DNA of 64,000 bases, taken from NCBI GenBank assembly GCA_963771355.1, contig CAVYTA010000005.1:512001-576000 (forward strand), read 5' to 3'. Below are positions 31,670 through 47,222 of this stretch, in pieces (the first letter of the stretch is position 1; the number at the start of each line of letters is the position of its first letter). The stretch is from an uncultured Candidatus Rokubacteria bacterium. GTDB taxonomy: Bacteria > Methylomirabilota > Methylomirabilia > Rokubacteriales > CSP1-6. The notes below the pieces were generated by a model. That model saw only the letters and a list, made by a program, of their open reading frames with translations. It was not told the DNA's origin and did no database searches. The translations under genes and the position numbers were made by a program.

Positions 31670-32434
31670 GTGACACTGTTTGATCTCACGGGGAAGGTGG
31701 CGGTAGTGACGGGCGGCAACGGCGGGATCGGGCTGGGCATGGCGCGCGGGCTCGCCGGCGCCGGCTGCGACGTGGTGGTGGCGGCGCGCAACGCGGACAA
31801 GAGCAGCCGCGCGGTGAAGGAGCTCGAGGGCCTCGGAGTCCGCGCCGCCGCCATCTCGGTGGATGTGGCCGACGAGCCCTCGGTGGAGACGCTGATCGCG
31901 CGCGCGGTCGAGGCCTTCGGACGCATCGACATCGTGGTGAACAACGCCGGCACCAACGTGCGGAAGCCTCCGGAGGAGCTGGCTCTCGCGGAGTGGCACC
32001 ACGTGATGGACACCAACCTCACCAGCGCTTTTCTGGTGAGCCGCGCCGCCTATCCCCACATGAAGCGGCAGGGCGGGGGCAAGGTGATCAATATCGGCTC
32101 CATGATGTCCATATTCGGCGTGCGCTTCTCGCCCGCCTACGCCGCCTCGAAGGGCGGCATCGTGCAGCTCACCAAGGTCATGGCCACCGCGTGGGCGGGG
32201 GACAATATCCAGGTCAACGCGGTGCTCCCGGGCTGGATCGACACCGAGCTGACCCAGGGGGCGCGAAAGCAGATCGCGACCCTGCACGATTCCGTGCTGA
32301 AGCGCACACCCGCCGGGCGCTGGGGTGTGATGGCGGACATGTCCGGGGTGGCGGTGTTTCTCGCCAGCCCCGCGTCGGACTTCGTGACCGGCACCGCCAT
32401 TCCGGTGGATGGGGGCTATTCGATCCAGGGATGA
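31670..32434 (+). CDS. SDR oxidoreductase (KduD/gluconate 5-dehydrogenase-like)
   Basis: LFDLTGKVAVVTGGNGGIG, NNAG, YAASK and VDGGY motifs; GAGGAGG SD. Confidence 0.9.
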   Translation: MTLFDLTGKVAVVTGGNGGIGLGMARGLAGAGCDVVVAARNADKSSRAVKELEGLGVRAAAISVDVADEPSVETLIARAVEAFGRIDIVVNNAGTNVRKPPEELALAEWHHVMDTNLTSAFLVSRAAYPHMKRQGGGKVINIGSMMSIFGVRFSPAYAASKGGIVQLTKVMATAWAGDNIQVNAVLPGWIDTELTQGARKQIATLHDSVLKRTPAGRWGVMADMSGVAVFLASPASDFVTGTAIPVDGGYSIQG

Positions 32435-32468: not shown

Positions 32469-33242
32469 GTGGCGGCAAGGCTCGTCGTCCTCGTCCTCAT
32501 GCTCGCAACCGCCGGCTGCGCCTCGGCCGGGCGCCTGGACACGGCGGCGCGGGAGCCCGCGCCGGCTCCCGCCCTGACCTTCGCGCGGGACACCTTCGCC
32601 TTTCCCAACGAGAGCCTGACCAAGAACCGCGGCAAGCCCGACCTCTACGCGAATTACTGCTTCGTGATGGCGCGCGCGGTGACCCAGTTCCAGCGCTTCG
32701 CGCGCTTCGAGCCCACCCAGCCGCGCCTGGACACGGCCGCCTACGCGGAGCGGGTCCGGCAGGTGGTCGCTCGCCCGCCCTGGCACGAGCCGCTGCCCGG
32801 CGATGCGCGCGTGGTGATCCCGGGCTATGCCTCCTTGCACGACCTGTCGCGGGAGGAGGAGGCGGCGGTGAAGGCGGGGCTGGGCGGGAAGCTCTGGACC
32901 ATGGTGCACTGGACGAACTGGCGCGTGGTGTTCCCGATGACGGGCGCGCATCAGGAGGGCGTGGCGAGCCTGGTGGTCGACGAGATCCGGGCGCGGCGGC
33001 CGGTGCAATTGCTCGTCACGAACTTGCCCAGCTGGGAGCTCAACCACACCGTGATCGCCTACGACTATCGCGTGTCCCCGGCCGGCGATGTGGACTTCGT
33101 GGTCTACGACCCCAACGATCCCTACGTCCCCGGCATCATCACCTTCGACCACGCGGCCCGGCGCTTCGTGGCCACGCGCCTCTTCGACACCGAAGTGGGC
33201 GGCATCCGCGCCTTCCGCATGTACTACGGGCCGCTCCTCTGA
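32469..33242 (+). CDS. Lipoprotein of unknown function
   Basis: Lipobox TAGC; NYCFVM..NHTV..YDPN pattern reminiscent of papain-like C-H-D folds (inference). Confidence 0.65.
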   Translation: MAARLVVLVLMLATAGCASAGRLDTAAREPAPAPALTFARDTFAFPNESLTKNRGKPDLYANYCFVMARAVTQFQRFARFEPTQPRLDTAAYAERVRQVVARPPWHEPLPGDARVVIPGYASLHDLSREEEAAVKAGLGGKLWTMVHWTNWRVVFPMTGAHQEGVASLVVDEIRARRPVQLLVTNLPSWELNHTVIAYDYRVSPAGDVDFVVYDPNDPYVPGIITFDHAARRFVATRLFDTEVGGIRAFRMYYGPLL

Positions 33243-33250
33243 AGGCCTCG

Positions 33251-34162
33251 ATGTCCGCCGGTTCCGTCGCGCGCCCGCACTGGTACTCGCATGGGTGGAA
33301 CCGTGTCGCCTACTATCGTCTCGCCGACCTGGCGGCAGGAATGCTCCCGCGCCCGCTGCGGCTGGGTGCCGCGCGGCTGGCCGGGCGTCTCGCCGCGCGG
33401 CGGCTCGTGGCGGAGCGGCAGCAGGTGCGGGCCAATCTCGCCCGCGTGCTCACCGGTGCCTCCGAGGCCGCCCTCGGGCGCGCCACCGCCGAGACCTTCG
33501 CCAACTTCGCCGCCTGCTTCAGCGACTTCCTCACCATCAATCGGGGCGCGCCGGCGCGGCTTTGGGATTACGTGGCGTCGCGGCAGGGAGAAGAGCACCT
33601 CGAGGCGGCCTGCGCGGCGGGGCGCGGGGTGATTCTCCTCACCGCGCACCTCGGGAACTGGGAGTTCGGCGGCCGGCTCCTCGTCCCGCGGCTCGACCGG
33701 CCCATCCACATCGTGCTGGCGGCGGAACAGGACGCGGATCTCGAGCGTTACCTTCGACGGGAGGGAGAGCGGCTGCGCTTCGTGACCCGGCGGCACGCGA
33801 CATCTACCCTGGGGCTGCTCGCCGCCCTCCGGCGCAACGAGGCGGTGGCCATGCAGGGCGACCGGCCTACCGGCGAGCGCGGCGACACGGTGGTGGAGTT
33901 CTTCGGGGCTCCGGCGCCGTTCGCCATCGGTCCCTTCGTGCTCGCGCGGGCCGCGGGCGCGCCGGTGGTGGCCGCGTATTGCGTCATGGACGCCGACCAC
34001 CGCTACCGCATCACCGTCGAGTCGCCCATCTGGGTGAAGTCCGGCGAGGAGCCCGCCGCGCTGGCGGCCATGGTTGCCACCCTGGAGCGCGCGGTGCGCG
34101 CGCATCCCACCCAGTGGTTCAACTTCTTCGACGTGTGGAGCCCGCCCCGTGCCGCGGCGTGA
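33251..34162 (+). CDS. Lysophospholipid/lipid A-type acyltransferase
   Basis: LLTAHLGNWE, MQGDR and HPTQWFNF motifs. Confidence 0.9.
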   Translation: MSAGSVARPHWYSHGWNRVAYYRLADLAAGMLPRPLRLGAARLAGRLAARRLVAERQQVRANLARVLTGASEAALGRATAETFANFAACFSDFLTINRGAPARLWDYVASRQGEEHLEAACAAGRGVILLTAHLGNWEFGGRLLVPRLDRPIHIVLAAEQDADLERYLRREGERLRFVTRRHATSTLGLLAALRRNEAVAMQGDRPTGERGDTVVEFFGAPAPFAIGPFVLARAAGAPVVAAYCVMDADHRYRITVESPIWVKSGEEPAALAAMVATLERAVRAHPTQWFNFFDVWSPPRAAA

Positions 34163-35330
34163 TCGGGTGGCGGTGGTCGCCGCCGGCGTGGCCACGCCCA
34201 TCGGCCAGGATCTCGACGCGTTCTGGTCCTCGCTGCTCACCGGCGCCAGCGGGATCTCCACCATCGAGCGCTTCCCGGTGGCCGACCTCCGGGTGGGCCG
34301 CGGCGGCGAGATCAAGAAGCTCACGCGCGTCACGCGCTGGACCGGCGTGCCGGACTGCCGCGCCACGCGCCTGCTCGTGTCGGCCGCCGACGAATTGACC
34401 GCTCAGGTGCCGCTGCGGCCCGCCGACGTGGATCCCACGCGGGTGGCGGTGGTGGTGGGCACCGCACTGGGGGGCGTGGAGGAAGGCGAGCGCGCGCTCG
34501 CCGGCGAGGGCCCGCGACGGCGGCTGCGCGGCGCCCTCTACGACGCGCCGGGACACAACCTGGCCCGCTGGCTCGGCGCCCGCGGGCACGTCCTCACCGT
34601 GTCCACCGCCTGTGCGTCGGGGGCCACCGCGCTCGGCGTGGGCGCCGACCTCCTGCGCCAGGACATGGCCGACCTCGTGGTCGCGGGCGGCTACGACATC
34701 CTCTGCCGTTTCGTGATGCGCGGCTTCGACGCCCTGCGCTCGCTGACGCGGGACGAGGTGCGCCCCTTCGACCGCCGCCGCAGTGGGCTGCTCCTCGGCG
34801 AGGCGGGTGCGCTCGTGCTCCTGGCGCGCGAGGCGGACACGGGGCGCCGCCCGCTCGGCTGGCTCCGCGGCCATGCGAGCACGGGCGACGGCTTCCACAT
34901 CGCGGCCCCGGAGCCGGACGGTCGGGGCCTCGAGCGGGCGGTGCGGCTGGCGCTGGCGGAAGCGGACGCCGCGCCGGGAGACGTGGACTTCGTGAGCGCG
35001 CATGGTACCGCCACCCCGCTCAATGACCGGATCGAGACCGCGGTGCTCAAGCGCGTCTTCCAGGCGCATGCGCATGCGATTCCGGTGAACTCGATCAAGG
35101 CCACCATGGGGCACACCATGGGCGCGGCCGCGACGCTGGAGGCCATCATGTGCCTGCTGGCGGGACGGCATGGCCAGATCCCGCCCACCCGCCATCTCGA
35201 GGTCCCGGACCCCGAGTGCGACCTGGACTATGTGCCGGGGACCGCCCGCGCCCTGCGCCCGCGGCTGTCGCTGAGCACCTCGCTGGGCTTCGGCGGATGC
35301 AACGGGGCCCTGATCCTGGAGTCGGCTTGA
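34149..35330 (+). CDS. Beta-ketoacyl-ACP synthase (FabF-like KS)
   Basis: TACASG, SAHGTAT and KATMGHT give an intact Cys-His-His triad. Confidence 0.92.
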   Translation: MPRRDRVAVVAAGVATPIGQDLDAFWSSLLTGASGISTIERFPVADLRVGRGGEIKKLTRVTRWTGVPDCRATRLLVSAADELTAQVPLRPADVDPTRVAVVVGTALGGVEEGERALAGEGPRRRLRGALYDAPGHNLARWLGARGHVLTVSTACASGATALGVGADLLRQDMADLVVAGGYDILCRFVMRGFDALRSLTRDEVRPFDRRRSGLLLGEAGALVLLAREADTGRRPLGWLRGHASTGDGFHIAAPEPDGRGLERAVRLALAEADAAPGDVDFVSAHGTATPLNDRIETAVLKRVFQAHAHAIPVNSIKATMGHTMGAAATLEAIMCLLAGRHGQIPPTRHLEVPDPECDLDYVPGTARALRPRLSLSTSLGFGGCNGALILESA

Positions 35331-36160
35331 GCACGACGGTGGCGACGGCACGGAGCGGGAGGGGGATTCTCGCCCCCGCCATCCGGGCCGTCGGGTTCGT
35401 GTCCGGCTGGGGCACCGGCATGGGCGCGGTTCCCGCCGATGCGCGGGTGGCGGCGGGGGGCCGGGACGTGGTGCCCCTCGGCCGGCCGGCCGTGGAGGGC
35501 GAGCGGTTCCGGCGGGCCACCCGGGAATGCCTCTGGGCCCTTGCGGCCATAGAGGTGATGCTGGAAAATGGAGGGGTTAGCCGGGCCGCGCTGGCCGGGG
35601 ACCGCACGGCGCTGCTGTTCGTGTCGGCGGCGGTGTACGGGGCGTCGAACCGGGCGTTCATCGAGCGGAGCGGCGGGGGCACGCACTTCGCATACACCGC
35701 GCCGGCGGTGGTGTCGGCCGAGGCGGCGATCGAATACGGCTTGCAAGGGCCGGCGGTGCTGTTCATCGGCGGTCCCCCCGCCACGCTGCGGGCGATCTGG
35801 TACGGGGCGACCTTGCTCGCGGGCGGCACCTGTGACCGCGCGCTCGTGCTGGCGGTGGAGACGTTCGCGGAATGCGCGGACCTCTACGCGCGGGCGCGGC
35901 GACGCAGCGCGCCGCCCTTGGTGGAAGCCGCCGCCTGCGCCTGGCTCGAGCCGGGCGAGGGTCGGCTCGAGCTGCAGGTCCGACGGTCGCCACGGGATGC
36001 CGGCACCGGCATCGAGCGCCGGCTCGGCGAGACTTTCGCCTGCGCGCCGCTCGCAGAGCTTGCGATGTGGCGGCAAGCGGGAAGCGCCGGCGATCTCCGG
36101 CTGCACGGGCGCTGGCGGGGCGAGGCGGCCGATCTCACCATCACGAAAGGCGGAGCATGA
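35327..36160 (+). CDS. Truncated KS-like protein (chain-length-factor-like)
   Basis: RFRRAT, FAYTAP and LQGP N-terminal KS fold, no catalytic Cys; start uncertain (TTG at 35327). Confidence 0.7.
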   Translation: MSTTVATARSGRGILAPAIRAVGFVSGWGTGMGAVPADARVAAGGRDVVPLGRPAVEGERFRRATRECLWALAAIEVMLENGGVSRAALAGDRTALLFVSAAVYGASNRAFIERSGGGTHFAYTAPAVVSAEAAIEYGLQGPAVLFIGGPPATLRAIWYGATLLAGGTCDRALVLAVETFAECADLYARARRRSAPPLVEAAACAWLEPGEGRLELQVRRSPRDAGTGIERRLGETFACAPLAELAMWRQAGSAGDLRLHGRWRGEAADLTITKGGA

Positions 36161-36432
36161 CGCAGAAGGAAGTGCTGGACGAACTGAAGGCGATCGTCGT
36201 CGAGCGGCTGCGCTTCGACCCGCGGCGGGCTGCCGACATGACGCTCGAGACCACCCTACCCAAGGGCGTGGCCGGCTCGCTCGGGCTGGACTCGCTCGAC
36301 TTCATCGAGCTCTCGGTGGCCATGGAAGAGCGATTCGGGATCACCATCGAGGAAGGGCAAGACCTCGCGGAGGAGTTCCACTCCCTCGACAGCCTCTCGC
36401 GCTTCATCCTCGCCAAGATGGGCCCGGCATGA
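36157..36432 (+). CDS. Acyl carrier protein
   Basis: LGLDSLD phosphopantetheine site; MEERFGI. Confidence 0.92.
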   Translation: MTQKEVLDELKAIVVERLRFDPRRAADMTLETTLPKGVAGSLGLDSLDFIELSVAMEERFGITIEEGQDLAEEFHSLDSLSRFILAKMGPA

Positions 36433-36478
36433 GCGATCCCTCGGCGCGTTCCCCCGCCGACCCGGAGTGCGCCGCCGG

Positions 36479-37666
36479 ATGACGCGCGTCGTCGTCAGCG
36501 GCCTCGGCGTGGTGAGCCCATACGGTGCCGGCGCCAAGACCTTCTGGGGCGGACTGGCTGCGGGCGTCTGCGCGATCCGACCCATCACCCTCATCGACAC
36601 TGCGGGGTTCCGCTCGCGCATCGCCGCCGAGGTGCCGGCCGACGTCATCTCCGGGCTCGGCGTCTCGTCCCGGCGCGCCCGCGCGGACCGGCTCGGGCTG
36701 GCCGCGGCGCGCGAGGCGCTGGCCGACGCGGGGCTCAGCCGCGGCGAGCGCGCGGACGCCGCCCTCATCATCGGCGCGGTGGGCGGCGGCATGCTCGAGG
36801 GCGAGGCGTGGTACTGGGAGGAGACGCGGACGGGGCGGCCGTCGCCGCGCATCACGGCGCTGCGCTCCATTCTCCCCTATACCCATGCCGAGACCTTGGG
36901 CTGGCGGCTGGGCATCGGCGGCCCGAAGGAGACCATCGTGATGGCCTGCGCCTCGGGTGCGGCCTCCGTCGCGCTGGGTGCCGACCTGATCCGCCGGGGC
37001 AAGGTGACGCGCGCGCTCGTGGGGGGCGTGGATGCCCTCACCCGCATCTGCTTCATGGGATTCAACGCGCTCAAGCTCCTGGCGCCCGAGCCGTGCCGCC
37101 CCTTCGATCGCGCACGGAACGGCATGTCCATCGGCGAAGCCGCCGCCTTCCTGGTCCTGGAAGACGCGGACGCCTGCCGCGCGCGCGGCGGACACGCGCA
37201 CGCCGAGTTCCTGGGCGCGGGCATGACCACCGACGCCCATCACGTGACCTCGCCCCAACCCGAGGGGGAGGGGATGGCGCGGGCCATGGAGCTGGCCCTG
37301 GCGGACGCCGCGCTGCCTCCGCGATCGGTCCACTACGTCAACGCGCACGGGACGGGGACGCTGCAGAACGACCGCACCGAGGCCCTCGCGCTGGTGCGAG
37401 TATTCGGGGCGCGCGGCGTGCCGGTGAGCTCGACCAAGTCGCTGGTGGGCCACACCATGGCGGCGGCGGGGAGCCTCGAGGCGGTGGCCACGGTGCTCGC
37501 GCTCCAGCACGGGCTCATCCCGCCCACCGGGAATCTCGTCGACGTGGATCCGGACATTCCCTTCGACTGCGTGCCGCTCACGGCTCGCCCGGCCCCGCTG
37601 GAGGTGGCGTTGAGCAACTCCTTCGGCTTCGGCGGACAGAACGTGAGCCTCGTGTTCGGCCGATGA
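36479..37666 (+). CDS. Beta-ketoacyl-ACP synthase (FabF-like KS)
   Basis: MACASG, NAHGTGT, KSLVGHT and SNSFGFGG motifs. Confidence 0.93.
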   Translation: MTRVVVSGLGVVSPYGAGAKTFWGGLAAGVCAIRPITLIDTAGFRSRIAAEVPADVISGLGVSSRRARADRLGLAAAREALADAGLSRGERADAALIIGAVGGGMLEGEAWYWEETRTGRPSPRITALRSILPYTHAETLGWRLGIGGPKETIVMACASGAASVALGADLIRRGKVTRALVGGVDALTRICFMGFNALKLLAPEPCRPFDRARNGMSIGEAAAFLVLEDADACRARGGHAHAEFLGAGMTTDAHHVTSPQPEGEGMARAMELALADAALPPRSVHYVNAHGTGTLQNDRTEALALVRVFGARGVPVSSTKSLVGHTMAAAGSLEAVATVLALQHGLIPPTGNLVDVDPDIPFDCVPLTARPAPLEVALSNSFGFGGQNVSLVFGR

Positions 37667-38814
37667 GCGTCGGGCGCCGCGTGGTCGTGACCGGGATGGG
37701 CATGGTGAGCGTCGCCGGCGCGGGCGGCACCGGCGTCGTCGCGGACGCGCTGGCGCGGCCCGCGGCCGGCATCGTCCCGATTCGCGGCTTCGAGACCACG
37801 GGGCTTCCCTCCGTGCTGGGCGCCGAGGTCGACGATGAGCTGCTCGAGTCCCTGATCGACCGCGACGCGGCCCGCCGGCTCTCGCGCATCTGCCGGTTCA
37901 CGGTGGCGGCGTGCCGGCTCGCGTTGGAGGACGCGCAGGTGGAGGCGGGCCCGCAGCTCGGGCTCGTGGTGGGCACGGAATACGGCGACTTCCGGTCCAG
38001 CGGCGAATTTGCCACGGGTTACCTCAATCGCGGGCCCGGCGGGCTGTCGCCCATGCTGTTTCCCGGCACGGTCATGAACGCGATGGGCGCGGCCGCCTCC
38101 ATCGCCATCGGCGCCAAGGGGCCCACGGTCACGGTGAACCAGGCCACGATCTCGGGCGATCTCGCGGTGGCGCGCGCGGCCACCCTCGTCGCGCGAGGGC
38201 CCGCGGAGGCGGTGCTGGCGGGCGGGGTGGACGAGCTCTGTGGTCCCGTGTACCGGCGGCTCGCCGAGATGGGCGTGATCTCACCGATGCGGCAGGGCTC
38301 TCGCCGCCTCGGCACCGAGGGGTGCCGGCCGTTCTCGCCGGACCACAACGGTCCGGTGCTGGGCGAGGGCGCGACCTTCCTCGTGCTGGAGGCGTACGAG
38401 GTCGCGCGCGCCCGCGGGGCGTCCATCCTGGCGGAGCTGGTGGCGGCGGAGTGGGGGAATATCCCGGTGGCGCCGCACACCGCGCCCCCGCGGCGGGTCG
38501 ATCCCCGCTCGCCCCTGCGCCGCGCGCTCGAGGCGAGCGGGATCACGGCGGCCGCGCTCCGCGGCGTGTGGGCCACCGGCAACGGTGATCCCGCCCTCGA
38601 TGACTGGGAGGAACAGCTCCTCGCCGTCGACCTCGCCGCCCAGCCGGCCCTGCTGCCGCCGCGGTCGCTGACCCCCCGGTTCGGCCAGCACGGCGGGCTC
38701 GGCGTGCTGCGCGTGGCCGCCGCCGCGCTTGCCGCCGGGGAAGGGCCGGCCCTCGCCCACGGCCTCGCCCGCGGCGGCTGCCGCACCGCGATCCTGCTCG
38801 CCAGGCCCACCTGA
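37663..38814 (+). CDS. KS-like protein lacking the catalytic Cys (chain-length-factor-like)
   Basis: RVVVTGMG, RPF and GEGA present; the active-site region reads NQATISG. Confidence 0.82.
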   Translation: MSVGRRVVVTGMGMVSVAGAGGTGVVADALARPAAGIVPIRGFETTGLPSVLGAEVDDELLESLIDRDAARRLSRICRFTVAACRLALEDAQVEAGPQLGLVVGTEYGDFRSSGEFATGYLNRGPGGLSPMLFPGTVMNAMGAAASIAIGAKGPTVTVNQATISGDLAVARAATLVARGPAEAVLAGGVDELCGPVYRRLAEMGVISPMRQGSRRLGTEGCRPFSPDHNGPVLGEGATFLVLEAYEVARARGASILAELVAAEWGNIPVAPHTAPPRRVDPRSPLRRALEASGITAAALRGVWATGNGDPALDDWEEQLLAVDLAAQPALLPPRSLTPRFGQHGGLGVLRVAAAALAAGEGPALAHGLARGGCRTAILLARPT

Positions 38815-38825
38815 GCGGAGTTTCC

Positions 38826-39912
38826 GTGGGCGACCACCTGATCGTCATCCCGGTCTTCAACGAGGCGGCCACCATCGAGGGGCTGGTGACGCGCGCGCGC
38901 GCCTACGGGACCGTGGTGGTGGTGGATGACGGTTCCGCCGACGCCAGCGCGGCGGTGGCCGCGCGCGCCGGCGCCGAGCTCGTGCGGCTCCCGCGGCAGC
39001 GCGGGAAGGGCGAGGCGCTGCGGCGCGGCTTCGACGCCGCGCTGGCCCGCGGCGCCGAGCGCGTGGTCACCCTGGACGGCGACGGCCAGCACGATCCCGA
39101 CGAGATTCCCCGGCTGCTCCAGGCCTCCGCCGAGCATCCGGCCGCGCTCGTCGTCGGTGGGCGGCTGGGTCACGGGCCCGACGGGAATCCCGATGAGCCC
39201 GGCTACCGCGTCATCCCGCGCGAGCGCCTCAACGCCATGCGCGTGGCCGGCTTCTTCATCGACTGGCTCACCGGCTATGCGCTGCGCGACACGCAGTCCG
39301 GCTTTCGCGTCTACCCGCTGGCGCTGCTCACCGCGGCGCGTGGGCGGCGGGGCGGATTCGTCTTCGAGACCGAGATGCTGCTGCGCGCCGCCGCCCTCGG
39401 CCTGCCGCTGGTGGAGACGCCCATCACCGCCGTGCATCACGCGAACCGGCGGAGCCGATTCCGCCCGCTGCAGGACGGCATCGCGGTGACGTCCTTTCTC
39501 ACCGCCAAGGGCGCGCGGGCGCTGGGCGCGCGACATCGTGATGGTCGTGGCCGCGCTCGTTCGGCCCTTCCGCGCGGAGCGGCGGATCCCGCGGCACCGC
39601 GAGGTGATGGCCGCCACCACGGGCATGCGCGACAACTTCGGTGCCTTCATGCTGGCGGTGGCCGCGTTCGCGCTGGCGCGCACGGCCGACACCTGGCGGC
39701 GGTGGTGGGAGGATCCGCGCGCGATCCAGATCCGCGAGGCCGGGCTCGCCGCTGTGGCGCTGCCTTTGCTGATGGCCCTGGTGCTCGCGCAGGGCGTGCT
39801 GGGCCGCGTGGGCCGCGACCCGCTCACGCCGTTCATCCGGCGTGTTTACGCCCAGGACCGGCTGGCCCGCGCCCTGCGCTCCTGTCAGGTGCGGCGTTCG
39901 GCGCGCTCATGA
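38826..39912 (+). CDS. Glycosyltransferase family 2 with a probable +1 frameshift near 39517-39519
   Basis: IPVFNE, VDDGS, GKG, LDGDGQH and DTQSGFR motifs; a plausible membrane C-terminus in the alternate frame ends with an ATGA overlap at 39909-39912. Confidence 0.75.
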
Positions 39913-41183
39913 CCTCCGAGACCGACGTCCTCGTGATCGGCGGCGGGCCCGGTGGCTCCACCGCCGCCACCTGCCTCGCGCAGGGCGGGCTGCGCGTGAC
40001 GCTGGTGGAGCGAGAGGCCTTTCCGCGATTCCACATCGGGGAGTCGCTCCTGCCCGCCAACATTCCGCTCCTCGAGCGGCTGGGGGTGATGGACCGGGTG
40101 AAGAAGGCCGGGTTCATCACCAAGTACGGCGCCTATATCCACGACCAGGAATCCGATCTCTCGTATACCTTCACCTTTCGTCCCGGCAAGCCCTGGCCGC
40201 CGTGGGCCTTCGAGGTGCCGCGCGCCCAGTTCGATCGCGTGCTCCTCGATCACGCCGCCGCCCAGCCGGGGGTCACGATCTGCCAGCCCGCCCGGGTGGA
40301 CCAGGTCGCCTTCGACGCCGACGGCGTGAGCGCCGAGATCGGCGACGCGTCGGGCGGGCGGACGCTCCGTGCCCGCTTCCTGGTGGACGCCAGCGGGCGT
40401 GACGGCTTTCTCGCTTCCCGCCAGGGGGGCCGGCGCGAGCCCATTCCCGGGCTCGGCAAGGTCGCGCTCTTCGCTCACTTTCGCGGGGCGCGGCGCTGGC
40501 CCGGGAAGGAAGAGGGCAATATCCGCCTCTACGTCTTCGAGGACGGGTGGTTCTGGTGGATCCCGTTCACCGGTGACGTGACCAGCGTGGGCTGCGTCCT
40601 TCATGCGCGCGCGGCGCGGGAGCGCGAGGGATCGGTGGAGGCGCTCTACGAGGAGATGTGCGCGCGCTGCCGGGCGGTGGCGGAGGGTCTCGACGGCGCC
40701 GAGCGCATCACCCCGGTGCACACCGCGGCCAACTTCTCGTACCGCACCACGCCGGTGGTGGGTGACCGCTTCGTCTGCGTGGGCGACTCGGTGGTCTTCA
40801 TCGACCCCATCTTCTCCACCGGCGTCTTCGTGGCGATGCAGTCGGCGGAGCTGGCCTCGGTGGAGATCCTGCGCGCCTTCCGCGACAATCGCTTCGCCGC
40901 GCGCCGCTTCGGCGGCTACGTGCGCCGGATCCAGCGCGGGATCCGGCCCTTCACGCGCTTCATCAACCGGTACTACGAGCCGGCCTTCCTCGAGGTGCTG
41001 CTCCGGCCGAGGCCGAACCTCGGCATCCTCGACAGCGTGACCGGGCTCCTCGCCGGCGGGGCCTTCCTGCGCATGCCGTTGCGCATGCGGACGTCGCTCG
41101 CCATCTTCTTCTGGCTGGTGCGCATCAATACCTGGCGGCGCCGCTGGCGCGGCCAGCCGGTGGAGTCGAGGCTTTCCTGGTAA
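39909..41183 (+). CDS. FAD-dependent oxidoreductase, flavin-dependent halogenase-like (paralog 1)
   Basis: GGGPGG, FPRFHIGESL, GFITKYG, GWFWWIP and FIDPIFSTGV motifs. Confidence 0.85.
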   Translation: MTSETDVLVIGGGPGGSTAATCLAQGGLRVTLVEREAFPRFHIGESLLPANIPLLERLGVMDRVKKAGFITKYGAYIHDQESDLSYTFTFRPGKPWPPWAFEVPRAQFDRVLLDHAAAQPGVTICQPARVDQVAFDADGVSAEIGDASGGRTLRARFLVDASGRDGFLASRQGGRREPIPGLGKVALFAHFRGARRWPGKEEGNIRLYVFEDGWFWWIPFTGDVTSVGCVLHARAAREREGSVEALYEEMCARCRAVAEGLDGAERITPVHTAANFSYRTTPVVGDRFVCVGDSVVFIDPIFSTGVFVAMQSAELASVEILRAFRDNRFAARRFGGYVRRIQRGIRPFTRFINRYYEPAFLEVLLRPRPNLGILDSVTGLLAGGAFLRMPLRMRTSLAIFFWLVRINTWRRRWRGQPVESRLSW

Positions 41184-41202
41184 TGCGAAGCCACCTCATG
41201 AA

Positions 41203-41222
41203 GGTCGCCCCTTGGGGCGACC
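41203..41222. terminator. GC-rich inverted repeat (possible terminator or operator)
   Basis: GGTCGCCCC-TT-GGGGCGACC, no U tract. Confidence 0.4.
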
Positions 41223-41238
41223 GTAGATCAAATCAGGA

Positions 41239-42237
41239 ATGACCACACACCGCGGACCTAACCCCGCGCTTGTCTCGCGACGCGCGATCCTCGCGGGCGC
41301 GGCGGCGATGCTCGCTCCCGGCCGGGCGCGTGCTCAGTCAGGCCGGCCTCATCGCCTGGGGTGGATCTCGACGGAGCCCGAGCCGGACCCCTTCGTCGAT
41401 GGATTCCGTGAGGGGATGCGCCGTCTCGGCTATACGGAGGGCCGCGACTTCGTGCTCGAGCTGCGGTATGCGCCCGGAAACCTCGATCGGCTCCGGGCCG
41501 CGGCGACGGAGCTCATCAGCTCGCGCGTGGCCTTCATCGTCGCCAGCGGCCCTGCAATCTGGGCGATCAAGACCGTCCGCGACGTGCCGGTGCTCTTCGT
41601 CATCAGCGGGGATCCGGTGGCCCTCGGGATCGCGGCGACGGTGGCGAGACCGGGCGGGAACTTCACCGGCTTCACCTTCCTCTCGCTCGAGATCGCCGGC
41701 AAGCGCGTCGAGCTGCTGAAGCAGGCCATCCCGCCGCTGCGCACCCTGGTCGCCCTGTCCAACACCGGTCATCCGGGCGAGCCCGCCGAGCGGCGGGCCA
41801 CCGAAGCGGCGGCGCAGGCCCTCGGGCTCAAGCTGATCTATGTGCCCTTCGGCTCGCTGGCGGAGATCGACGCCGCCCTCGCGGCGGTGCGCGACGCGCG
41901 GCCGGACGGCATGGTGGTGTTCCCCGATGGTTCCACCATGGTGAGCCGCGCGAAGATTGCCGGCTTCGCGCTCGGCCAGCGGCTGCCGGCGATGTTCGGC
42001 TGGAGCGAGTTCTCCGATGCGGGTGGATTCATGAGCTATGGCGCCAACCAGCGTGACACCTATGTGCGCCTCGCCGGCTATGCCGATCGGTTGCTCCGCG
42101 GCGCGCGGCCGGCCGATCTGCCCATCGAGCAACCCACCCATTTCGAGCTCGTTCTCAACTTGCGGACCGCCCGGCTCCTCGGGATCACGGTGCCGCCGGC
42201 CCTCCGTCTGGCCGCGCATCGGGTGATCGACGCGTGA
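41239..42237 (+). CDS. Orphan ABC transporter substrate-binding protein (ABC_sub_bind type)
   Basis: Tat-like SRRAIL, ARPGGNFTG, GGFMSYG and LPIEQPTHFEL motifs. Confidence 0.9.
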   Translation: MTTHRGPNPALVSRRAILAGAAAMLAPGRARAQSGRPHRLGWISTEPEPDPFVDGFREGMRRLGYTEGRDFVLELRYAPGNLDRLRAAATELISSRVAFIVASGPAIWAIKTVRDVPVLFVISGDPVALGIAATVARPGGNFTGFTFLSLEIAGKRVELLKQAIPPLRTLVALSNTGHPGEPAERRATEAAAQALGLKLIYVPFGSLAEIDAALAAVRDARPDGMVVFPDGSTMVSRAKIAGFALGQRLPAMFGWSEFSDAGGFMSYGANQRDTYVRLAGYADRLLRGARPADLPIEQPTHFELVLNLRTARLLGITVPPALRLAAHRVIDA

Positions 42238-43499
42238 CCCACGACACCGACGTCCTGGTGGTCGGCGGCGGTCCCGGCGGCTCCACCACCGCCACTTTTC
42301 TCGCCCGCGGCGGGCTCGACGTCACCGTGGTGGAGCGCGAGGTCTTCCCGCGCTTCAAGGTTGGCGAGTCGCTGGTGCCCAACTGCATGCCCATCCTCGA
42401 GCGCCTCGGCGTGCTGGACAAGGTCAAGGCCCACGGCTTCCTCGACAAGTTCGGCGTGACCTTCCATGACCAGGAGCTCGAGCGCGAGGCCACCTTCACC
42501 TTCCGCGAAGGACGGCCCTGGCCGCACTTCACCTTCGACGTGCACCGTGCGGAGTTCGACCAGGTCCTCCTCGACCACGCGGTGACGGAGGGCGCCCGCG
42601 TGCTCCAGCCCGCCACGGTGGAGAAGGTCGCCTTCGATGCCGAGGGCGTGACCGTGCGGCTCAGCGACGGTGACGGCGAGCGCAGCCTGCGCGCCCGGTT
42701 CCTCGTGGACGCGACCGGGCGCGACGCCTTCCTCGCCTCGCGCCAGGGCCGCCGGGAGCCCATGCCCGGCCTCGGCAAGGTCGCCATCTTCGCCTACTTC
42801 CAGGGCGCCAAGCGCTGGCCTGGTCGGGAAGAGGGCAATGTCCGGATCTACATCTATCCGGAGGGCTGGTTCTGGTACATCCCGCTCGCCCGTGACGAGA
42901 CCAGCGTCGGCTGCGTGCTCCACGCGCGCACCGTCCGGGAACGGGACGGTTCGCCGGAGGATCTCTTCCGCGGAATGGTGGAGCGGTGCGACCGCGTGCG
43001 CGAGAACCTCGAGGGCGCGCGGCAGGTGACGCCGATGTACACCGCGGCCAACTTTTCCTATGCGGTAGAGCCCATCGTCGGCGACCGCTTCCTCTGCGTG
43101 GGCGACGCGGTGGCCTTCGTGGATCCCATCTTCTCGGCGGGCGTCTTCCTCGCCCTGGCCTCCGGCGAGATGGCCGCAGAGGAGATCCTGGGAGCGTTCC
43201 GCGCCAACCGTTTCGCGGCGTCGCGCTTCACGGGTTATGCCCGGCGACTCAAGCGCGGGATGCGGCCCTTCACACGGTTCATCACCCAGTTCTACGACCG
43301 CCAGTTCCTCGAGATCTTCATGAACCCGCGAGACACCTTCGGGCTCGTGGACACGGTGACCTTCGTCCTCGCCGGCGGGGCCTTCCGCCGCATTCCGCTG
43401 AAGAAGCGCCTCTCCCTCGAGCTCTTCTTCGCCATCGTGCGCATCACTCGCCGCATCCGGCGGCGTCAGGGCCGCGCCGAATCCCGACTGGAGTACTAG
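42234..43499 (+). CDS. FAD-dependent oxidoreductase, flavin-dependent halogenase-like (paralog 2)
   Basis: GGGPGG, FPRFKVGESL, GFLDKFG, GWFWYIP and FVDPIFSAGV motifs. Confidence 0.87.
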   Translation: MTHDTDVLVVGGGPGGSTTATFLARGGLDVTVVEREVFPRFKVGESLVPNCMPILERLGVLDKVKAHGFLDKFGVTFHDQELEREATFTFREGRPWPHFTFDVHRAEFDQVLLDHAVTEGARVLQPATVEKVAFDAEGVTVRLSDGDGERSLRARFLVDATGRDAFLASRQGRREPMPGLGKVAIFAYFQGAKRWPGREEGNVRIYIYPEGWFWYIPLARDETSVGCVLHARTVRERDGSPEDLFRGMVERCDRVRENLEGARQVTPMYTAANFSYAVEPIVGDRFLCVGDAVAFVDPIFSAGVFLALASGEMAAEEILGAFRANRFAASRFTGYARRLKRGMRPFTRFITQFYDRQFLEIFMNPRDTFGLVDTVTFVLAGGAFRRIPLKKRLSLELFFAIVRITRRIRRRQGRAESRLEY

Positions 43500-43501
43500 C
43501 C

Positions 43502-44680
43502 CTGCGGCGCATCTTTCCGAAGGGCTATGGCTTCACCGTGCTCGGCATCGCGGTGGGCATGGCGGGGCTGGTAGCGCTGGGCGCCATGGGCGAGCGGATC
43601 AGCCGCTTCATCGAGGGCGGCGACCGCTTCGTGCTCGGCCAGATCTCGGTGGCCGGTGAGGGGATGGGCATGGGCGCGGGCTTCACCGCGGGCGGCCTGC
43701 TCCCCGCCGCCCGTATCGCCGAGATCGCCCGCGTGCCGGGCGTCGCTGTCGTGCAGCCGCAGGTCATGCTGCCGATCAGCACGAGCACCTCGCACTTCCT
43801 CACCCTGACCCAGGAGCTCGTCATGGGCGTGGATCCCGCCGCGCCTCCGGCCAATCGCCACTACGCCGCCTTGGCGGTCCGCTCCGGCCGCGGGCTCGCG
43901 GCCGGTGATCGAAAAGTGGCCGTGGTCGGGAGCGACTTCGCCGCCTCACGCAAGCTGGCGGTGGGCGCCGCCCTGCCCATCGGCGGGCTCGAATTCACCG
44001 TGATCGGGATCCTCGACAAGACCCTCACCGCGCCCGACCGCTTCGCGATGCTGTCCCTCGAGGATGCCCGGGACCTCTGGCTCCGCCGCGACCCGTTGCT
44101 CTTCCGGGTCTTCGGCTCGGGCGGACTGGCGCGCACGGATCTCAACTCGGGCGCGGCGGTGGGCTGGCAGGAGGGCGTGGACCCGGACGAGCTGGCCCGG
44201 CGGATCCAGGCCTCCGTGAAGGGCGTCAACGTCACGATCCCGGGGGAGCTCTCGCGCCTCCTGCGCACCTCCACCGCGTTCTTTTCTGCGCTCCTCATCG
44301 GCATCGGCGCCCTGGGTCTCGTCATCGGCGGGCTCTCGCTCGCCAACACGGTGACCGCCGCCGTCTTCGAGCGCATCCGCGACTTCGGCGTCAAGCGCGC
44401 GCTGGGCGCCACCGACGCCCAGCTGCTTCGCGAGGTCCTCGGCGAGGCCCTCGGGGTGAGCCTGTGGGGGGTGGGCCTGGGCGTGCTCCTCGCGCTGGCC
44501 ATCGGCGCCGTGGTGGACTGGCGCACGCTTCGCGAGGGCCAGCAGCTCTTCCACTTCTCGCCGCGGCTGCTGACCTTCGCCTTCGTCTTCGCGGTGCTGC
44601 TGGGTGGTCTGGCCGCCGCCTACGCGACGCTCCGCATCGCCCGCCTCTCGCCCGCCGAGGCCATTCGCCGGGGGGCGTGA
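43502..44680 (+). CDS. ABC transporter permease (MacB/FtsX-like)
   Basis: ERIRDFGVKRALGA and LSPAEAIR motifs; start uncertain (CTG at 43502 after GGAG, or GTG at 43538). Confidence 0.82.
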   Translation: MRRIFPKGYGFTVLGIAVGMAGLVALGAMGERISRFIEGGDRFVLGQISVAGEGMGMGAGFTAGGLLPAARIAEIARVPGVAVVQPQVMLPISTSTSHFLTLTQELVMGVDPAAPPANRHYAALAVRSGRGLAAGDRKVAVVGSDFAASRKLAVGAALPIGGLEFTVIGILDKTLTAPDRFAMLSLEDARDLWLRRDPLLFRVFGSGGLARTDLNSGAAVGWQEGVDPDELARRIQASVKGVNVTIPGELSRLLRTSTAFFSALLIGIGALGLVIGGLSLANTVTAAVFERIRDFGVKRALGATDAQLLREVLGEALGVSLWGVGLGVLLALAIGAVVDWRTLREGQQLFHFSPRLLTFAFVFAVLLGGLAAAYATLRIARLSPAEAIRRGA

Positions 44681-44731
44681 GCCGGGCGCATCCGCCGGGC
44701 ACATCCCCCAGGTCTCCCCCAGGCACTTTCA

Positions 44732-45409
44732 ATGATCATCCGGGCGACAGGCCTCACCAAGATCTATCGAGGAATCGACGGCGCCGCGCCCGTGCGCGTG
44801 CTGGACGGCGTGGACCTCGAAGCCCGGTCGGGTCAGGTGGTGGCGGTGATCGGGGAGTCGGGCTCGGGCAAATCCACGCTCCTGAATCTCCTCGGGCTGC
44901 TCGAGCCCGCCGACGCTGGCGAGATCTGGTTCGACGACGCGCGCGTCAGCCATCTGGGCCGCCGCGCTCAGTGTCGTGTGCGCGGGACGCGGATCGGCTA
45001 TGTCTTCCAGGCCTTCCTCCTCATCGCCAGCCTGACCGCGCTGGACAACGTGCTCCTGGCCGCGCGCTATGTCGGGCGGGATCGCGGCGAGGCCGAGCGG
45101 GAGGCGCTGGCCCTCATGGAGCGGATGGGCGTCGTCCACCGGCGCGGCCACTACCCCGCGCAGCTCTCGGGTGGCGAGCAGCAGCGGGTGGCCTTTTGCC
45201 GCGCGGTGCTCAACGCGCCGCCGCTCCTGCTTGCCGATGAGCCCACCGGCAACCTGGACGACGCGCACGCGCGCGTGATCCTGGCCGAGCTGCGGACCCA
45301 GGCGCGGGAGCGGGGCGCGGCGGTGATCCTCGTGACTCACCGCGCGGATGCGGCCGCGGAGGCGGATGCGTCCTTCCGGCTTTCCGCGGGACGCCTGGTC
45401 GATCGGTAA
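44732..45409 (+). CDS. ABC transporter ATP-binding protein (LolD-like)
   Basis: GESGSGKS, LSGGEQQR and ADEPTGNLD motifs. Confidence 0.93.
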   Translation: MIIRATGLTKIYRGIDGAAPVRVLDGVDLEARSGQVVAVIGESGSGKSTLLNLLGLLEPADAGEIWFDDARVSHLGRRAQCRVRGTRIGYVFQAFLLIASLTALDNVLLAARYVGRDRGEAEREALALMERMGVVHRRGHYPAQLSGGEQQRVAFCRAVLNAPPLLLADEPTGNLDDAHARVILAELRTQARERGAAVILVTHRADAAAEADASFRLSAGRLVDR

Positions 45410-45449
45410 TGGTCCTCGACGCCATCGGCCGGTCGCGTTAGCGCGCCGC

Positions 45450-47222
45450 GTGGAGCCGTCCCACTTTCCCCCCGCGGCGCGTGTGGCCCTCGTCGCCGCC
45501 GCGCTGGCGCTGGTCCTGCTCCTGCCCGGCCTCGGCGTCGCGCCCTTCGACGATCCCGGCGAGGGCCAGCACGCCGAGATCGCCCGCGAGGCGTGGCGGT
45601 CGGGGGACTGGCTCACGCTGCGGCTCAACGGCGTCCGGTACTTCGACAAGCCGCCGCTGCTCTATCTGCTCCAGGCGGGGGCCTTCTCGACCTGGGGTCT
45701 CTCCGAGTGGACGGCTCGACTGGCTCCGGTGACGGGCGCGGTGCTGGCCATCGCCGCCACCGCCTGGCTCGGCGCGCGCCTGCTCGGTCCCGCCGGAGGG
45801 CTGCTCGCCGGCGCCGCCCTCCTGTCCTGCCCCTTCTTCTACGCCTTCGCGCGCTACGTGCGTCCCGAGACCTTGTTCCTGGCGTGCATACAGTGGGGCT
45901 TCGCGGGGATCGCGGCGGGGGTGATCGGCGGCTCACGCGCCGGGGCCGTGCTGGGCTGCGCGGCGCTGGGGATGGCCGTGCTGGCCAAGGACCCGCTCGG
46001 ACTCGCGGGGCCGCTGGCCGCTCTCGCAGTGGCGCTCGCGCTGGCGGGACGGCTGCGCCCCGTGCGGGCGTGGCTGCCGCCGCTGGGCCTGGCGGGTTTC
46101 GTCGTCATCGGCGCCGGATGGCCCGCACTCGCCGCCTGGGCCAATCCCGGCTTTCTCTGGTACACCGTCGTGGACAATCACCTGCGCAACGCGGTGCTGG
46201 CCCGACTGTTCCCCGACGAGGACGTGCCGCTCGCGGCGGGCGAGTTCCTCGCCGTGGCCGGGATGGGCGCCTTTCCCTGGATCGTGCCCGCCGCGCTCAT
46301 GGTGTGGACGCTGGCGCGGCGCCGGGCCTGGCGCGACCCGCGCGAGATCCCATGGCTCGCGCTCGCGCTGTGGGCGGTCGGGCTCCTCGCGCTGTTCGCG
46401 GTGGTGCCGTTCCGGCTGCCGCACTACGGGCTGCCCGGGTACGGCGCATTCGCCCTGCTCGCCGCGCGCTGGTGGTATGAGCGCCGCGACGGGGCGCGGG
46501 GCGCCGCCCTGCTCCATGCCGCGCTGCTGGGGCTGGCGGCGGCGGCGTGCGCGCTCGCCGCGGCCAGTGACGGCCGCCTCTTCGGCGAGAGCGTGCTGGA
46601 CGTCTCCGATCCCACCGCGCGCAAGGCGACCACGCTCGCCTCCGAGGTGACGGCCATGGCGCTCTGGCCGGCTTTCGCGGCCCTGCTCGCGAAGGCGGCG
46701 CTGGTGCTCGGTGTGGGCGCCGCGGCGCTGGCCACGTTGGTCGGCCTGCGTCGGGCCGCCGTGCCCGCCGCCGCGGCGGCGGCCATCGTCGCCGCGACCA
46801 TGCTGGCCACATTGCCGTTGGTGGGCGAGGGCCTACGCACCCTTGCCGCCTCGCGCGCGGTGGACCGGCTCGGCGCCGAGCTGGCCGCCCGCGCGCGGCC
46901 GGCCGATCTCATCGTGCACGAGGGCCCCATCGAGGCCTCCGGCGCGCTCGAGCTCTATTCCGGGCGCCGGCCGGTGCTGCTCGACGGGACGCGCAGCGTG
47001 CTGGCCTTCGGCGCCACCTTCGCCGACGCGCGGGACACGTTCTGGTCGGCGGAGCGGTTCAAGGAGGCCTGGCTGTCGGGTCGCACGATGTACCTCGTCA
47101 CGCCGCGCGCGCCCGAGCGGAGCGTGATCGCCGGGCTGCCGCCCGACCGCGTGCGGCTCCTGCTCAGCCACAATGGCCGGCGGCTCTACGAGAGCGCCGG
47201 CGCCGCTCAGCCCTCGCGGTAG
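45450..47222 (+). CDS. ArnT-like membrane glycosyltransferase (GT-C)
   Basis: DPGEGQHAEIARE, YFDKPPL and many TM segments; start uncertain. Confidence 0.85.
   Translation: MEPSHFPPAARVALVAAALALVLLLPGLGVAPFDDPGEGQHAEIAREAWRSGDWLTLRLNGVRYFDKPPLLYLLQAGAFSTWGLSEWTARLAPVTGAVLAIAATAWLGARLLGPAGGLLAGAALLSCPFFYAFARYVRPETLFLACIQWGFAGIAAGVIGGSRAGAVLGCAALGMAVLAKDPLGLAGPLAALAVALALAGRLRPVRAWLPPLGLAGFVVIGAGWPALAAWANPGFLWYTVVDNHLRNAVLARLFPDEDVPLAAGEFLAVAGMGAFPWIVPAALMVWTLARRRAWRDPREIPWLALALWAVGLLALFAVVPFRLPHYGLPGYGAFALLAARWWYERRDGARGAALLHAALLGLAAAACALAAASDGRLFGESVLDVSDPTARKATTLASEVTAMALWPAFAALLAKAALVLGVGAAALATLVGLRRAAVPAAAAAAIVAATMLATLPLVGEGLRTLAASRAVDRLGAELAARARPADLIVHEGPIEASGALELYSGRRPVLLDGTRSVLAFGATFADARDTFWSAERFKEAWLSGRTMYLVTPRAPERSVIAGLPPDRVRLLLSHNGRRLYESAGAAQPSR

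Follow-up and report, generated by a model that had tools for sequence, protein, structure and literature searches.

What would a bacterium make with two ketosynthase pairs and a carrier protein that are clustered without a ketoreductase (KR) or a dehydratase (DH)? The question is raised by a run of genes beginning at position 32469 of a 64,000-nucleotide stretch (the window) from the genome of an uncultured Candidatus Rokubacteria bacterium (5.53 Mb, 8 contigs, 99.77% complete). The run encodes two ketosynthases (KS1, KS2), each with a Cys-less partner of the chain-length-factor type (CLF1, CLF2), an acyl carrier protein (ACP), a family 2 glycosyltransferase (GT2), an acyltransferase, a lipoprotein, halogenase-like flavoproteins and an ATP-binding cassette (ABC) exporter. 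An earlier note, made from the sequence alone, had read it as an unusual cluster for a possibly halogenated and glycosylated membrane lipid or pigment. The run is dedicated and order-wide in Rokubacteriales. We give about an even chance to the operon being an aryl-polyene-lipid-like pathway without the aryl polyene, the product being a non-aryl glycolipid of the outer envelope.

The locus is kept as a unit. Of 120 loci fetched, 52 non-duplicate ones reach from the lipoprotein to the permease gene; 7 duplicates were dropped and the remaining loci are incomplete at their ends or are satellites. As these relatives share descent, counts over the 52 loci are descriptive. The core order of lipoprotein, two KS/Cys-less pairs, ACP, GT2 and MacB-type ABC is kept in 52/52. 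CLF1, ACP, KS2 and CLF2 were each found in all 52 runs and GT2 in 51, with a halogenase in 40, the acyltransferase in 31 and a methyltransferase in one; a short-chain dehydrogenase/reductase (SDR), a dehydratase and a ligase were each found in 0/52. Since the gene order persists in relatives down to ~40-65% identity, the run is not a chance arrangement. Nor is the locus a recent island, as the GC content of the region (70-76%) is the same as that of the window.

In a census of 135 genomes of the phylum (E<=1e-95), KS1 was present in 81; for the two main families of Rokubacteriales the counts were 65/82 and 14/14. Outside Rokubacteriales it was found in 1/38 genomes of the phylum, and that outlier has the run on a 17-kb contig. 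The lipoprotein profile matched 121/200 phylum genomes: 106/126, 13/16, 1/1 and 0/1 in four families of the order, some of these being satellite copies, and 0/55 in the other families of the phylum. Lipoprotein relatives at 50-89% identity are mostly labelled Candidatus Rokubacteria, Rokuibacteriota or Methylomirabilota, although some taxon labels of metagenome-assembled genomes look wrong. The family distribution of KS1 is the pattern of a structural envelope lipid, and the idea of a rare secondary-metabolite island is contradicted by it: with KS1 in 79/96 other Rokubacteriales genomes, this is a near-core, order-wide envelope locus. A housekeeping fab operon and an LpxL gene exist separately in the genome, so the set in the run is a dedicated one. 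Pieces of most run genes were found at 99-100% identity in one metatranscriptome run (assembled contigs, DNA carry-over uncontrolled). Our literature search, which left subscription papers and the supplements of the aryl polyene lipid preprint outside its scope, found no description of this Rokubacterial locus; the part of PMC7298704 available mentions KS domains for Rokubacteria and, for Verrucomicrobia, calls of the ladderane type, but not this locus.

A glycosylated membrane lipid, one of the products envisaged by the earlier note, is the best reading not only for this distribution. In E. coli ApeJ, the N-terminal half is 32% identical to the GT2 and the C-terminal half 30% to the acyltransferase, and GT2 and acyltransferase are the only matches of the run to the aryl polyene (APE) cluster of E. 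coli CFT073 other than fatty acid synthase components. The aryl polyene lipid (APEL) is an N-acetylgalactosamine (GalNAc)-phosphate-glycerol lipid bearing two cluster-made chains (bioRxiv 2020.12.19.423268; PMC8253772 and PMC8358021, in the portions available), and ApeJ has been proposed to put GalNAc onto a glycerophosphate lipid and to acylate it from ACP (bioRxiv 2020.12.19.423268). With the APEL cluster apeA-R (E. coli CFT073 and Xenorhabdus doucetiae) the run shares a dedicated ACP, two ketosynthase systems, a short Cys-less CLF, a GT2 and an LpxL-type acyltransferase like the split halves of ApeJ, a lipoprotein and an exporter, and the APEL product is a membrane glycolipid. However, the run has two heterodimer-type pairs, whereas APEL has ApeO-ApeC and a homodimeric ApeR (PMC8358021, in the same portion), and one ACP rather than two. 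It lacks the KR ApeQ, the DHs ApeI/ApeP, the 4-hydroxybenzoate ligase ApeH, ApeD, a thioesterase, the MMPL protein ApeM and LolA, and has a MacB-type ABC, an ArnT-like enzyme, HpnJ and a putatively papain-like lipoprotein instead. ApeP, ApeI, ApeH, ApeM and ApeL have no match anywhere in the genome. Judged by its sequences, the locus is not an APE member and appears to work like the APEL anchor pathway.

As assembled, the GT2 gene is frameshifted and runs into that of the first flavoprotein as a 785-residue open reading frame. The extra base is absent in 5 relatives and in 4/4 sequencing runs from four studies, so this reading frame is most likely an assembly artefact; a GT2-halogenase fusion in this genome was rejected as a one-base assembly error (~39516), the intact GT2 having 361 residues. 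True in-frame fusions do occur in 7/80 loci (the genes are separate in 26), which would place halogenation at the membrane glycosylation step.

Both ketosynthases have the intact Cys-His-His residues that the earlier note had reported, and the two Cys-less partners, one truncated and one full-length, stand beside them. Across de-duplicated tblastn segments from the 120 loci, the catalytic Cys is kept in 74/75 (KS1) and 67/67 (KS2), the His pair in 74/74 and 66/66, respectively, and the ACP serine in 70/70. The catalytic position of CLF1 is Ala, Pro, Gly or Ser in 71/71 segments and never Cys, and that of CLF2 is non-Cys in 65 orthologous segments, 14 rows with Cys being, by their context, cross-hits to KS2 or FabF. 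CLF1 is short like ApeC and bears a likeness to PF13723 clusters; BLAST of CLF1 and CLF2 against ApeC itself gave no match. The structural model of CLF1 (predicted local distance difference test, pLDDT, 87) has as its closest folds the CLF chains of ishigamide and AntDE.

The ketosynthases stay under the cut-off of each characterized type whose model was scored. They score 286.8 (KS1) and 289.4 (KS2) against the ApeO model PRK09185 (cut-off 407), which E. coli ApeO passes with 556.1, and 157.4 and 201.3 against the ApeR model PRK09116 (cut-off 470), which E. coli ApeR passes with 778.8. The FabF model TIGR03150 gives 286 and 341 against a cut-off of 493.75, while the host's true FabF, elsewhere in the genome, reaches 662.9; the cispentacin AmcF model gives 237-238 against 325. 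The models PRK06501, PRK06519, PRK06508 and PRK06553, which we take to be those of the rhizobial XL genes (AcpXL, FabF1XL/FabF2XL, LpxXL), were missed as well (19.6 vs 83; 220.7/264.4 vs 629; 45.7 vs 320; 45 vs 273). In a quick 19-row tree KS1, KS2, CLF2, ApeO-type enzymes and FabF form separate supported groups on an unresolved backbone, and a grouping of KS1 with ApeO, in a test that included a xanthomonadin-type KS, has an approximately unbiased p-value (p-AU) of 0.52. Plasmid matches to the KSs are all <37%, the best being a lone fabF. A broken FabF-like gene lies without partners in a low-GC (~60%) island at G000:C6:1619410-1620693 of the source genome.

The layout described in the earlier note holds: the run is co-oriented, entirely on the + strand with mostly overlapping stop and start codons, every gene that it listed is there, and profile scans of the run proteins (Pfam and NCBIfam) found neither a KR or DH nor a cyclase or ligase among them. 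That note had overlooked an ABC substrate-binding protein (SBP) gene between the two flavoproteins, and its end of the unit at 47222 is right for the genes listed but not for the conserved unit, which extends to an HpnJ gene starting 1.6 kb further on (Table 1). The exporter is of the MacB/LolCDE type. An independent contig joins the SBP gene to halogenase 2; the SBP family is expanded in this genome (40 matches), and the gene was rejected as a pathway component as it lies inside 0/52 related runs, so it is probably unrelated to the pathway. The ABC_sub_bind-type genes at window 25380-26366 and 41239-42237 look like single insertions between unrelated genes. A promoter and terminator scan of the locus gave nothing informative.

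Table 1. Genes and other features of the run and its flanks (positions in the window)
Feature	Position	Strand	Basis or remark
KduD-like SDR, directly upstream, co-oriented	31670..32434	+	KduD 251.8 bits; FabG 199.3 vs cut-off 297.75
Lipoprotein DUF8321/DUF8322, predicted papain-like fold, Cys64-His193-Asp214	32469..33242	+	predicted periplasmic transacylase or hydrolase
LpxL/PatA-family acyl-ACP acyltransferase	33251..34162	+	PF03279 117 bits; optional in run
KS1, active-type ketosynthase, C155-H285-H322	34149..35330	+	profiles and residues; under every NCBIfam KS cut-off
CLF1, truncated Cys-less KS partner, 277 aa	35327..36160	+	weak PF00109
Dedicated ACP, DSL serine	36157..36432	+	PF00550
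KS2, active-type ketosynthase, C157-H290-H325	36479..37666	+	profiles and residues
CLF2, full-length Cys-less KS partner, Thr162 at Cys position	37663..38814	+	alignment
GT2, polyprenyl-phosphate/ApeJ type, C-terminal membrane segment	38826..39912	+	PF00535; one-base assembly error ~39516
Flavin-dependent halogenase-like enzyme 1	39909..41183	+	PF04820 105 bits; GxGxxG, Lys, WxWxIP, FxDPxFSxG
Perfect GC-rich inverted repeat, gap between halogenase 1 and SBP genes	41203..41222	.	direct reading; not scored as terminator
ABC substrate-binding protein (SBP), species-level insertion	41239..42237	+	PF04392
Flavin-dependent halogenase-like enzyme 2	42234..43499	+	62% identity to enzyme 1
MacB/FtsX-type ABC permease	43496..44680	+	PF02687, PF12704; start 43496 or 43538
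ABC ATPase, LolD/MacB-like	44732..45409	+	profile matches
ArnT-like GT-C glycosyltransferase	45450..47222	+	PF13231; NF009784 77.5 bits, far under cut-off 567
CopD-like membrane protein, between ArnT and HpnJ in this genus	47207..48826	-	profile match
HpnJ-family B12/radical-SAM enzyme, co-conserved terminal gene	48862..50307	+	TIGR03471 765.9 bits vs cut-off 577.6

How the chain would be reduced is a further question. The earlier note supposed that the reductive steps are borrowed in trans, which remains plausible for the KR but not for a FabZ-type DH. A satellite locus at G000:C5:61516-65690 (L123:5520-9688) in the source genome has a fabG gene divergent from acyltransferase, ACP, methyltransferase and lipoprotein genes; the acyltransferase (54%), ACP (54%) and lipoprotein (55%) are paralogues of those in the main run, and the methyltransferase is of the Methyltransf_12 family. 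The satellite FabG reaches 298.2 bits against the TIGR01830 cut-off of 297.75 (housekeeping FabG, 317.9). The satellite methyltransferase occurs in 28/61 genomes of the order, with a FabG-like gene beside it in 7/20 loci opened, and at one locus (L252 = L114) the module lies within the main run. FabG in trans is therefore a candidate KR, yet half of the genomes would need the housekeeping enzyme. The SDR directly upstream of the run is unlikely to be the pathway KR, since it resembles KduD, does not reach the FabG cut-off and is seen in just 32/80 loci. Larger satellites are found in other Rokubacteria (L061:28-10031, also L064, L075, L143 and L251), with genes for FabG, an acyltransferase, two methyltransferases, a third halogenase-like protein, an AMP-ligase, a flavin-dependent (FAD) oxidoreductase, a condensation-like protein without a Pfam family, a second ACP and a lipoprotein. 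Beside a satellite module in genome G001 lies a 2048-residue type I polyketide synthase (KS-AT-DH-KR-ACP-TE; L128:7470-13613).

For the DH, neither FabZ nor FabA was found in the genome of this diderm by two profiles that both match in 9 control genomes, nor was FabZ found by a motif scan or by tblastn with divergent Rokubacterial FabZ-like proteins; a housekeeping FabZ acting in trans was rejected on these grounds. The lpxD and lpxA genes are ~120 bases apart with no fabZ between them. PF07977 matches occur in 20/61 genomes of the order. Ten such loci were opened: another cluster, of the layout KR-ACP-DH-KS, accounts for nine, and the tenth, on a 2.5-kb contig, holds a FabZ-LpxA fusion. About one third of Rokubacteriales have another type II cluster (L149-L157) with a KR, a 202-residue double-length ACP, a FabZ-like DH, a second SDR and a KS. 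Twelve MaoC-type dehydratases in the source genome are over cut-off, and Rokubacteria may run fatty acid synthesis with such an enzyme. As ordinary fatty acid synthesis must use a non-FabZ enzyme here, a run without a DH cannot by itself fix the reduction state of the product. Two adjacent MaoC-dehydratase genes at window 10678-11435 (G000:C5:522678, 523142) are candidates for the missing dehydratase.

Two halogenase-like flavoproteins with GxGxxG and WxWxIP are present as the earlier note stated, but the pair does not define the locus, for related runs have no copy in 12/52 and two full copies in only 4/52, all of this genus. The doubled halogenase is a genus-level extra on an order-wide core and the least conserved part of it. 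Halogenation is therefore not core chemistry, and the weight the earlier note gave to it is lessened. In a quick tree, which does not date their split, each of the two copies falls in a well-supported group of its own. All four halogenase hallmarks are kept: GxGxxG, WxWxIP and Fx.Px.Sx.G in 53-54/54 and 53/53 segments, and in 57/57 segments a lysine aligned with that of the PltA K-K-F-G motif (K73), which is presumably catalytic. The three motifs are described in the available part of PMC8407142. The nearest solved structures are ChlB4, PltA, 5BUK, 8ZOP and 3E1T. All sequence hallmarks are shared with the variant B carrier-dependent halogenases ChlB4, PltA, Mpy16 and CndH and with CmlS, although the CmlS model gives only 207-210 bits against a cut-off of 900; unlike the systems of those enzymes, the operon has no aromatic starter, and some relatives have the GT2 fusion. 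Three flavin reductases above cut-off elsewhere in the genome could serve in trans. Among plasmid sequences, halogenase 2 has its best match, also its closest annotated relative (39%), in a xanthomonadin-type cluster, beside an acyltransferase, GT2, KS and CLF. Clusters of the xanthomonadin/arcuflavin type (such as those of Azospirillum ramasamyi plasmid NZ_CP029832 and Azoarcus BH72 arc) differ in having their own FabG, dehydratase, methyltransferases, MMPL protein and hydroxybenzoate start. By its sequences, then, the product may sometimes be halogenated. Against this, 12/52 runs are without a halogenase, the operon has no aromatic starter, and the pigment of the arcuflavin cluster is non-brominated even though a halogenase is annotated there (PMC3949708, in the excerpt available).

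The lipobox Cys17 of the lipoprotein is invariant in 13 aligned sequences, and its Cys-His-Asp triad is kept in 103/103 segments and in 43 distant sequences. The top fold matches of its model (pLDDT 82) are nearly all papain-like cysteine proteases, with middling Z scores (best 8.1, root-mean-square deviation 4.0, 133 aligned residues, 8% identity); Foldseek returned no match at E<=0.001. From predicted fold and gene context we infer a role in acyl transfer. Among 1.84 billion representatives searched, 535 lipoprotein sequences turned up, and plasmids yielded none. In a distant branch, for which the Atlas suggests Verrucomicrobiota (the contigs themselves carrying no taxonomy), the gene is head-to-head with a divergent AMP-ligase gene in 45/50 metagenome loci with upstream sequence, and several of these loci also have a FabZ-like DH, LolA, an MMPL protein and an LpxL-type acyltransferase. 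These neighbourhoods tie the lipoprotein family to acyl-lipid clusters outside Rokubacteria. Loci L188:3231-10738, L226, L176 and L183 are instances of this layout with the DUF8321/8322 lipoprotein, and some Rokubacterial satellites mirror it, with a second ACP and a third halogenase-like gene.

From the genes, their catalytic residues, their order and their distribution, all of which are observed, we infer every chemical step of the glycolipid pathway. KS1-CLF1 and KS2-CLF2 would form two heterodimers that take over a fatty acyl primer supplied by primary metabolism and lengthen it by a few malonyl units on the operon's own ACP. A satellite or housekeeping FabG would reduce keto groups in trans, and the satellite methyltransferase would add alpha-methyl groups in about half of the genomes; without a FabZ-type enzyme the chain would likely be hydroxylated, branched or partly unreduced rather than a conjugated polyene. 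The GT2 and the acyltransferase would share the two jobs of ApeJ, placing a sugar, probably an amino sugar, onto a lipid phosphate and acylating it from acyl-ACP. In runs that have them, the flavoenzymes may place a halogen at an electron-rich site of the chain or of the lipid. The MacB-type ABC would lift the lipid out of the inner membrane, the papain-like lipoprotein would transfer or trim an acyl group in the periplasm, and the ArnT-like and HpnJ-like enzymes would remodel the sugar head group.

Several points weigh against this glycolipid pathway. Both matches to ApeJ are of low identity (30-32%), within families that are large. In 21/52 runs there is no acyltransferase; a paralogue is elsewhere in 4/5 checked genomes whose run lacks it, and in one 78%-complete genome it was found nowhere. 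The pairing of the KSs with their CLFs is predicted from adjacency and fold only. As the run has no starter ligase, ApeD-type acyltransferase, MMPL protein or LolA, anchor and route would differ from those of APEL. The best model matches of the GT2, all below cut-off, are polyprenyl-phosphate sugar synthases, which together with ArnT would suggest a donor-flip-transfer route to another acceptor such as lipid A. Finally, HpnJ shifts between the operon and the squalene-hopene cyclase (SHC) locus, which suggests a hopanoid substrate.

The last point needs the wider context of HpnJ. HpnJ has a proposed role in the ring contraction of bacteriohopanetetrol (BHT)-glucosamine (PMC13459092, in the part available), and in what is accessible of PMC12324291 it is found only in genomes with SHC and HpnH. 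The source genome shares HpnJ, two SHCs and HpnH with the HpnI-HpnK-HpnJ pathway, but no HpnI or HpnK in it is over cut-off, and HpnJ is linked to the KS operon. Among 61 genomes of the order, HpnH is over cut-off in 58, HpnJ in 50 and HpnI in 7, with most HpnI matches adjoining a separate HpnJ copy. HpnJ is <=25 kb from KS1 on the same contig in 33/50 genomes with both; among the other 17, run genes are beside HpnJ on another contig in 5, and HpnJ is beside the hopanoid locus in 6. Of ten HpnJ-less genomes, eight are also without KS1. ArnT was seen in loci of family f1 only and is absent from the f4 loci seen, in which an HpnL-like gene precedes HpnJ; in some loci EamA and polysaccharide deacetylase genes follow the run. 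These linkages tie the operon to hopanoid or amino-sugar head-group chemistry and would at most suggest a shared product. A second ArnT-like gene (46-48% to that of the operon), followed by methyltransferase and GT2 genes, is at L126:7476-10785 (G000:C6:827475-830785). The hopanoid locus itself (G000:C5:605339-626912; SHC, HpnH, HpnG, HpnA, HpnD, HpnM, HpnN and a Mla-type ABC) is interleaved with genes that, by reading only, resemble phosphoenolpyruvate (PEP) mutase, phosphonopyruvate decarboxylase, CDP-alcohol transferase, HpnL and inositol-phosphate synthase; a phosphono-hopanoid or phosphonolipid is a possible product of it.

If the operon tailored hopanoids, it would replace the glycosylation by HpnI, HpnJ would contract the sugar to a cyclitol ether, and an added acyl chain would give an acylated composite hopanoid. 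The frequent HpnH and HpnJ with rare HpnI, the shared absence of HpnJ and KS1, and the position of HpnJ at the operon end or beside the SHC locus (in f4 loci after an HpnL-like gene) favour this, but the GT2 has no TIGR03472 match and is not HpnI-like, no HpnK is over cut-off, HpnJ is away from the operon in at least 6 genomes and here CopD intervenes, and HpnH also occurs in genomes without the operon, so that its co-occurrence is not specific. We consider hopanoid tailoring quite unlikely. The acceptor could alternatively be lipid A, with the long acyl chain made by the KS pairs put on by the LpxL-family enzyme and a sugar added by the GT2, an EamA flippase and ArnT. LpxA is over cut-off in 61/61 genomes and LpxB is present, an ArnT-like gene follows the run, and EamA and polysaccharide deacetylase genes are in some loci. 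The rhizobial cluster for fatty acids with very long chains (VLCFA; acpXL, fabZXL, fabF1XL, fabF2XL, lpxXL), which in the portion of PMC5613085 available likewise lists no KR, shares a dedicated ACP, an extra FabF-like pair and an LpxL-family acyltransferase with the run. However, it has one KS pair and FabZXL, and is without a glycosyltransferase, exporter, halogenase or lipoprotein. The KSs, ACP and acyltransferase are far under the cut-offs of the four XL models, and no FabZXL was found in the run or genome. ArnT is absent from the f4 loci seen and the acyltransferase from 21/52 runs. Lipid A is exported by its own MsbA/Lpt systems, so the MacB-type ABC and the lipoprotein would not be needed for its tailoring. 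Lipid A tailoring is thus unlikely in our estimate. That the product replaces lipid A was rejected, as LpxA (61/61), LpxB and BamA are present; lpxC is in pieces at G000:C6:2028538-2029260, probably through another assembly frameshift, with lpxA, lpxB and lpxD intact.

Two further readings concern the chain rather than its acceptor. In a non-reducing route, a fatty acyl primer elongated by the KS pairs to a poly-beta-keto chain would cyclize to an alkyl-resorcinol or pyrone that is then halogenated and glycosylated, to give a bartoloside- or flexirubin-like glycolipid or a secreted metabolite. The absence of KR and DH from 52/52 runs fits such a route, as do the nearest solved halogenases ChlB4 and PltA, which use carrier-bound electron-rich rings; as the operon lacks an aromatic starter, the halogenase substrate would come from a ring formed in situ. 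Yet the run has no cyclase, DarA/DarB or type III polyketide synthase, the halogenase is absent from 12/52 runs, FabG accompanies the paralogous module, and near-universal presence in an order would be unusual for a secreted metabolite; the route is very unlikely. A pigment like those of APE and xanthomonadin clusters, a conjugated polyene for which KR, DH and starter would all be supplied in trans, appears highly improbable. The limited tree does not reject KS1 with ApeO and xanthomonadin-type KSs, CLF1 resembles ApeC in length and PF13723 clusters, and 12 MaoC-type dehydratases could be drawn upon, but neither KS1 nor KS2 reaches the cut-offs of the ApeO and ApeR models, which the true E. 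coli proteins exceed, and the genome is without ApeP/ApeI/ApeH/ApeM/ApeL matches. The pigment considered by the earlier note needs a dehydratase, and with no FabZ or FabA in a 99.8%-complete genome a conjugated polyene is unlikely unless a MaoC-type enzyme serves.

The glycolipid of the outer envelope may also be something bolder: a lineage-defining lipid of a new class, in which acyl chains made by the two dedicated KS-CLF heterodimers without a FabZ-type DH would be joined to an amino sugar by a periplasmic papain-like transacylase and HpnJ would contract the sugar to a cyclitol ether stable to acid, carried by a hopanoid or by the operon's own lipid, with optional halogenation. This version is quite unlikely as a whole, but if true, the lipid would serve as a biomarker of a soil order that is abundant and uncultured, and organohalogen lipids in soil would have a biological source. 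Short of that, the locus gives a first functional lead for DUF8321/DUF8322, whose proteins are probably papain-like and are linked in two lineages to clusters for acyl lipids, and an example of HpnJ where HpnI is lacking. It also offers a dehydratase-free type II system that has two KS-CLF pairs, and a testable biomarker. Rokubacteria are common in soil and uncultured; about four-fifths of their genomes have the operon, whose product is probably a major envelope lipid never yet isolated.

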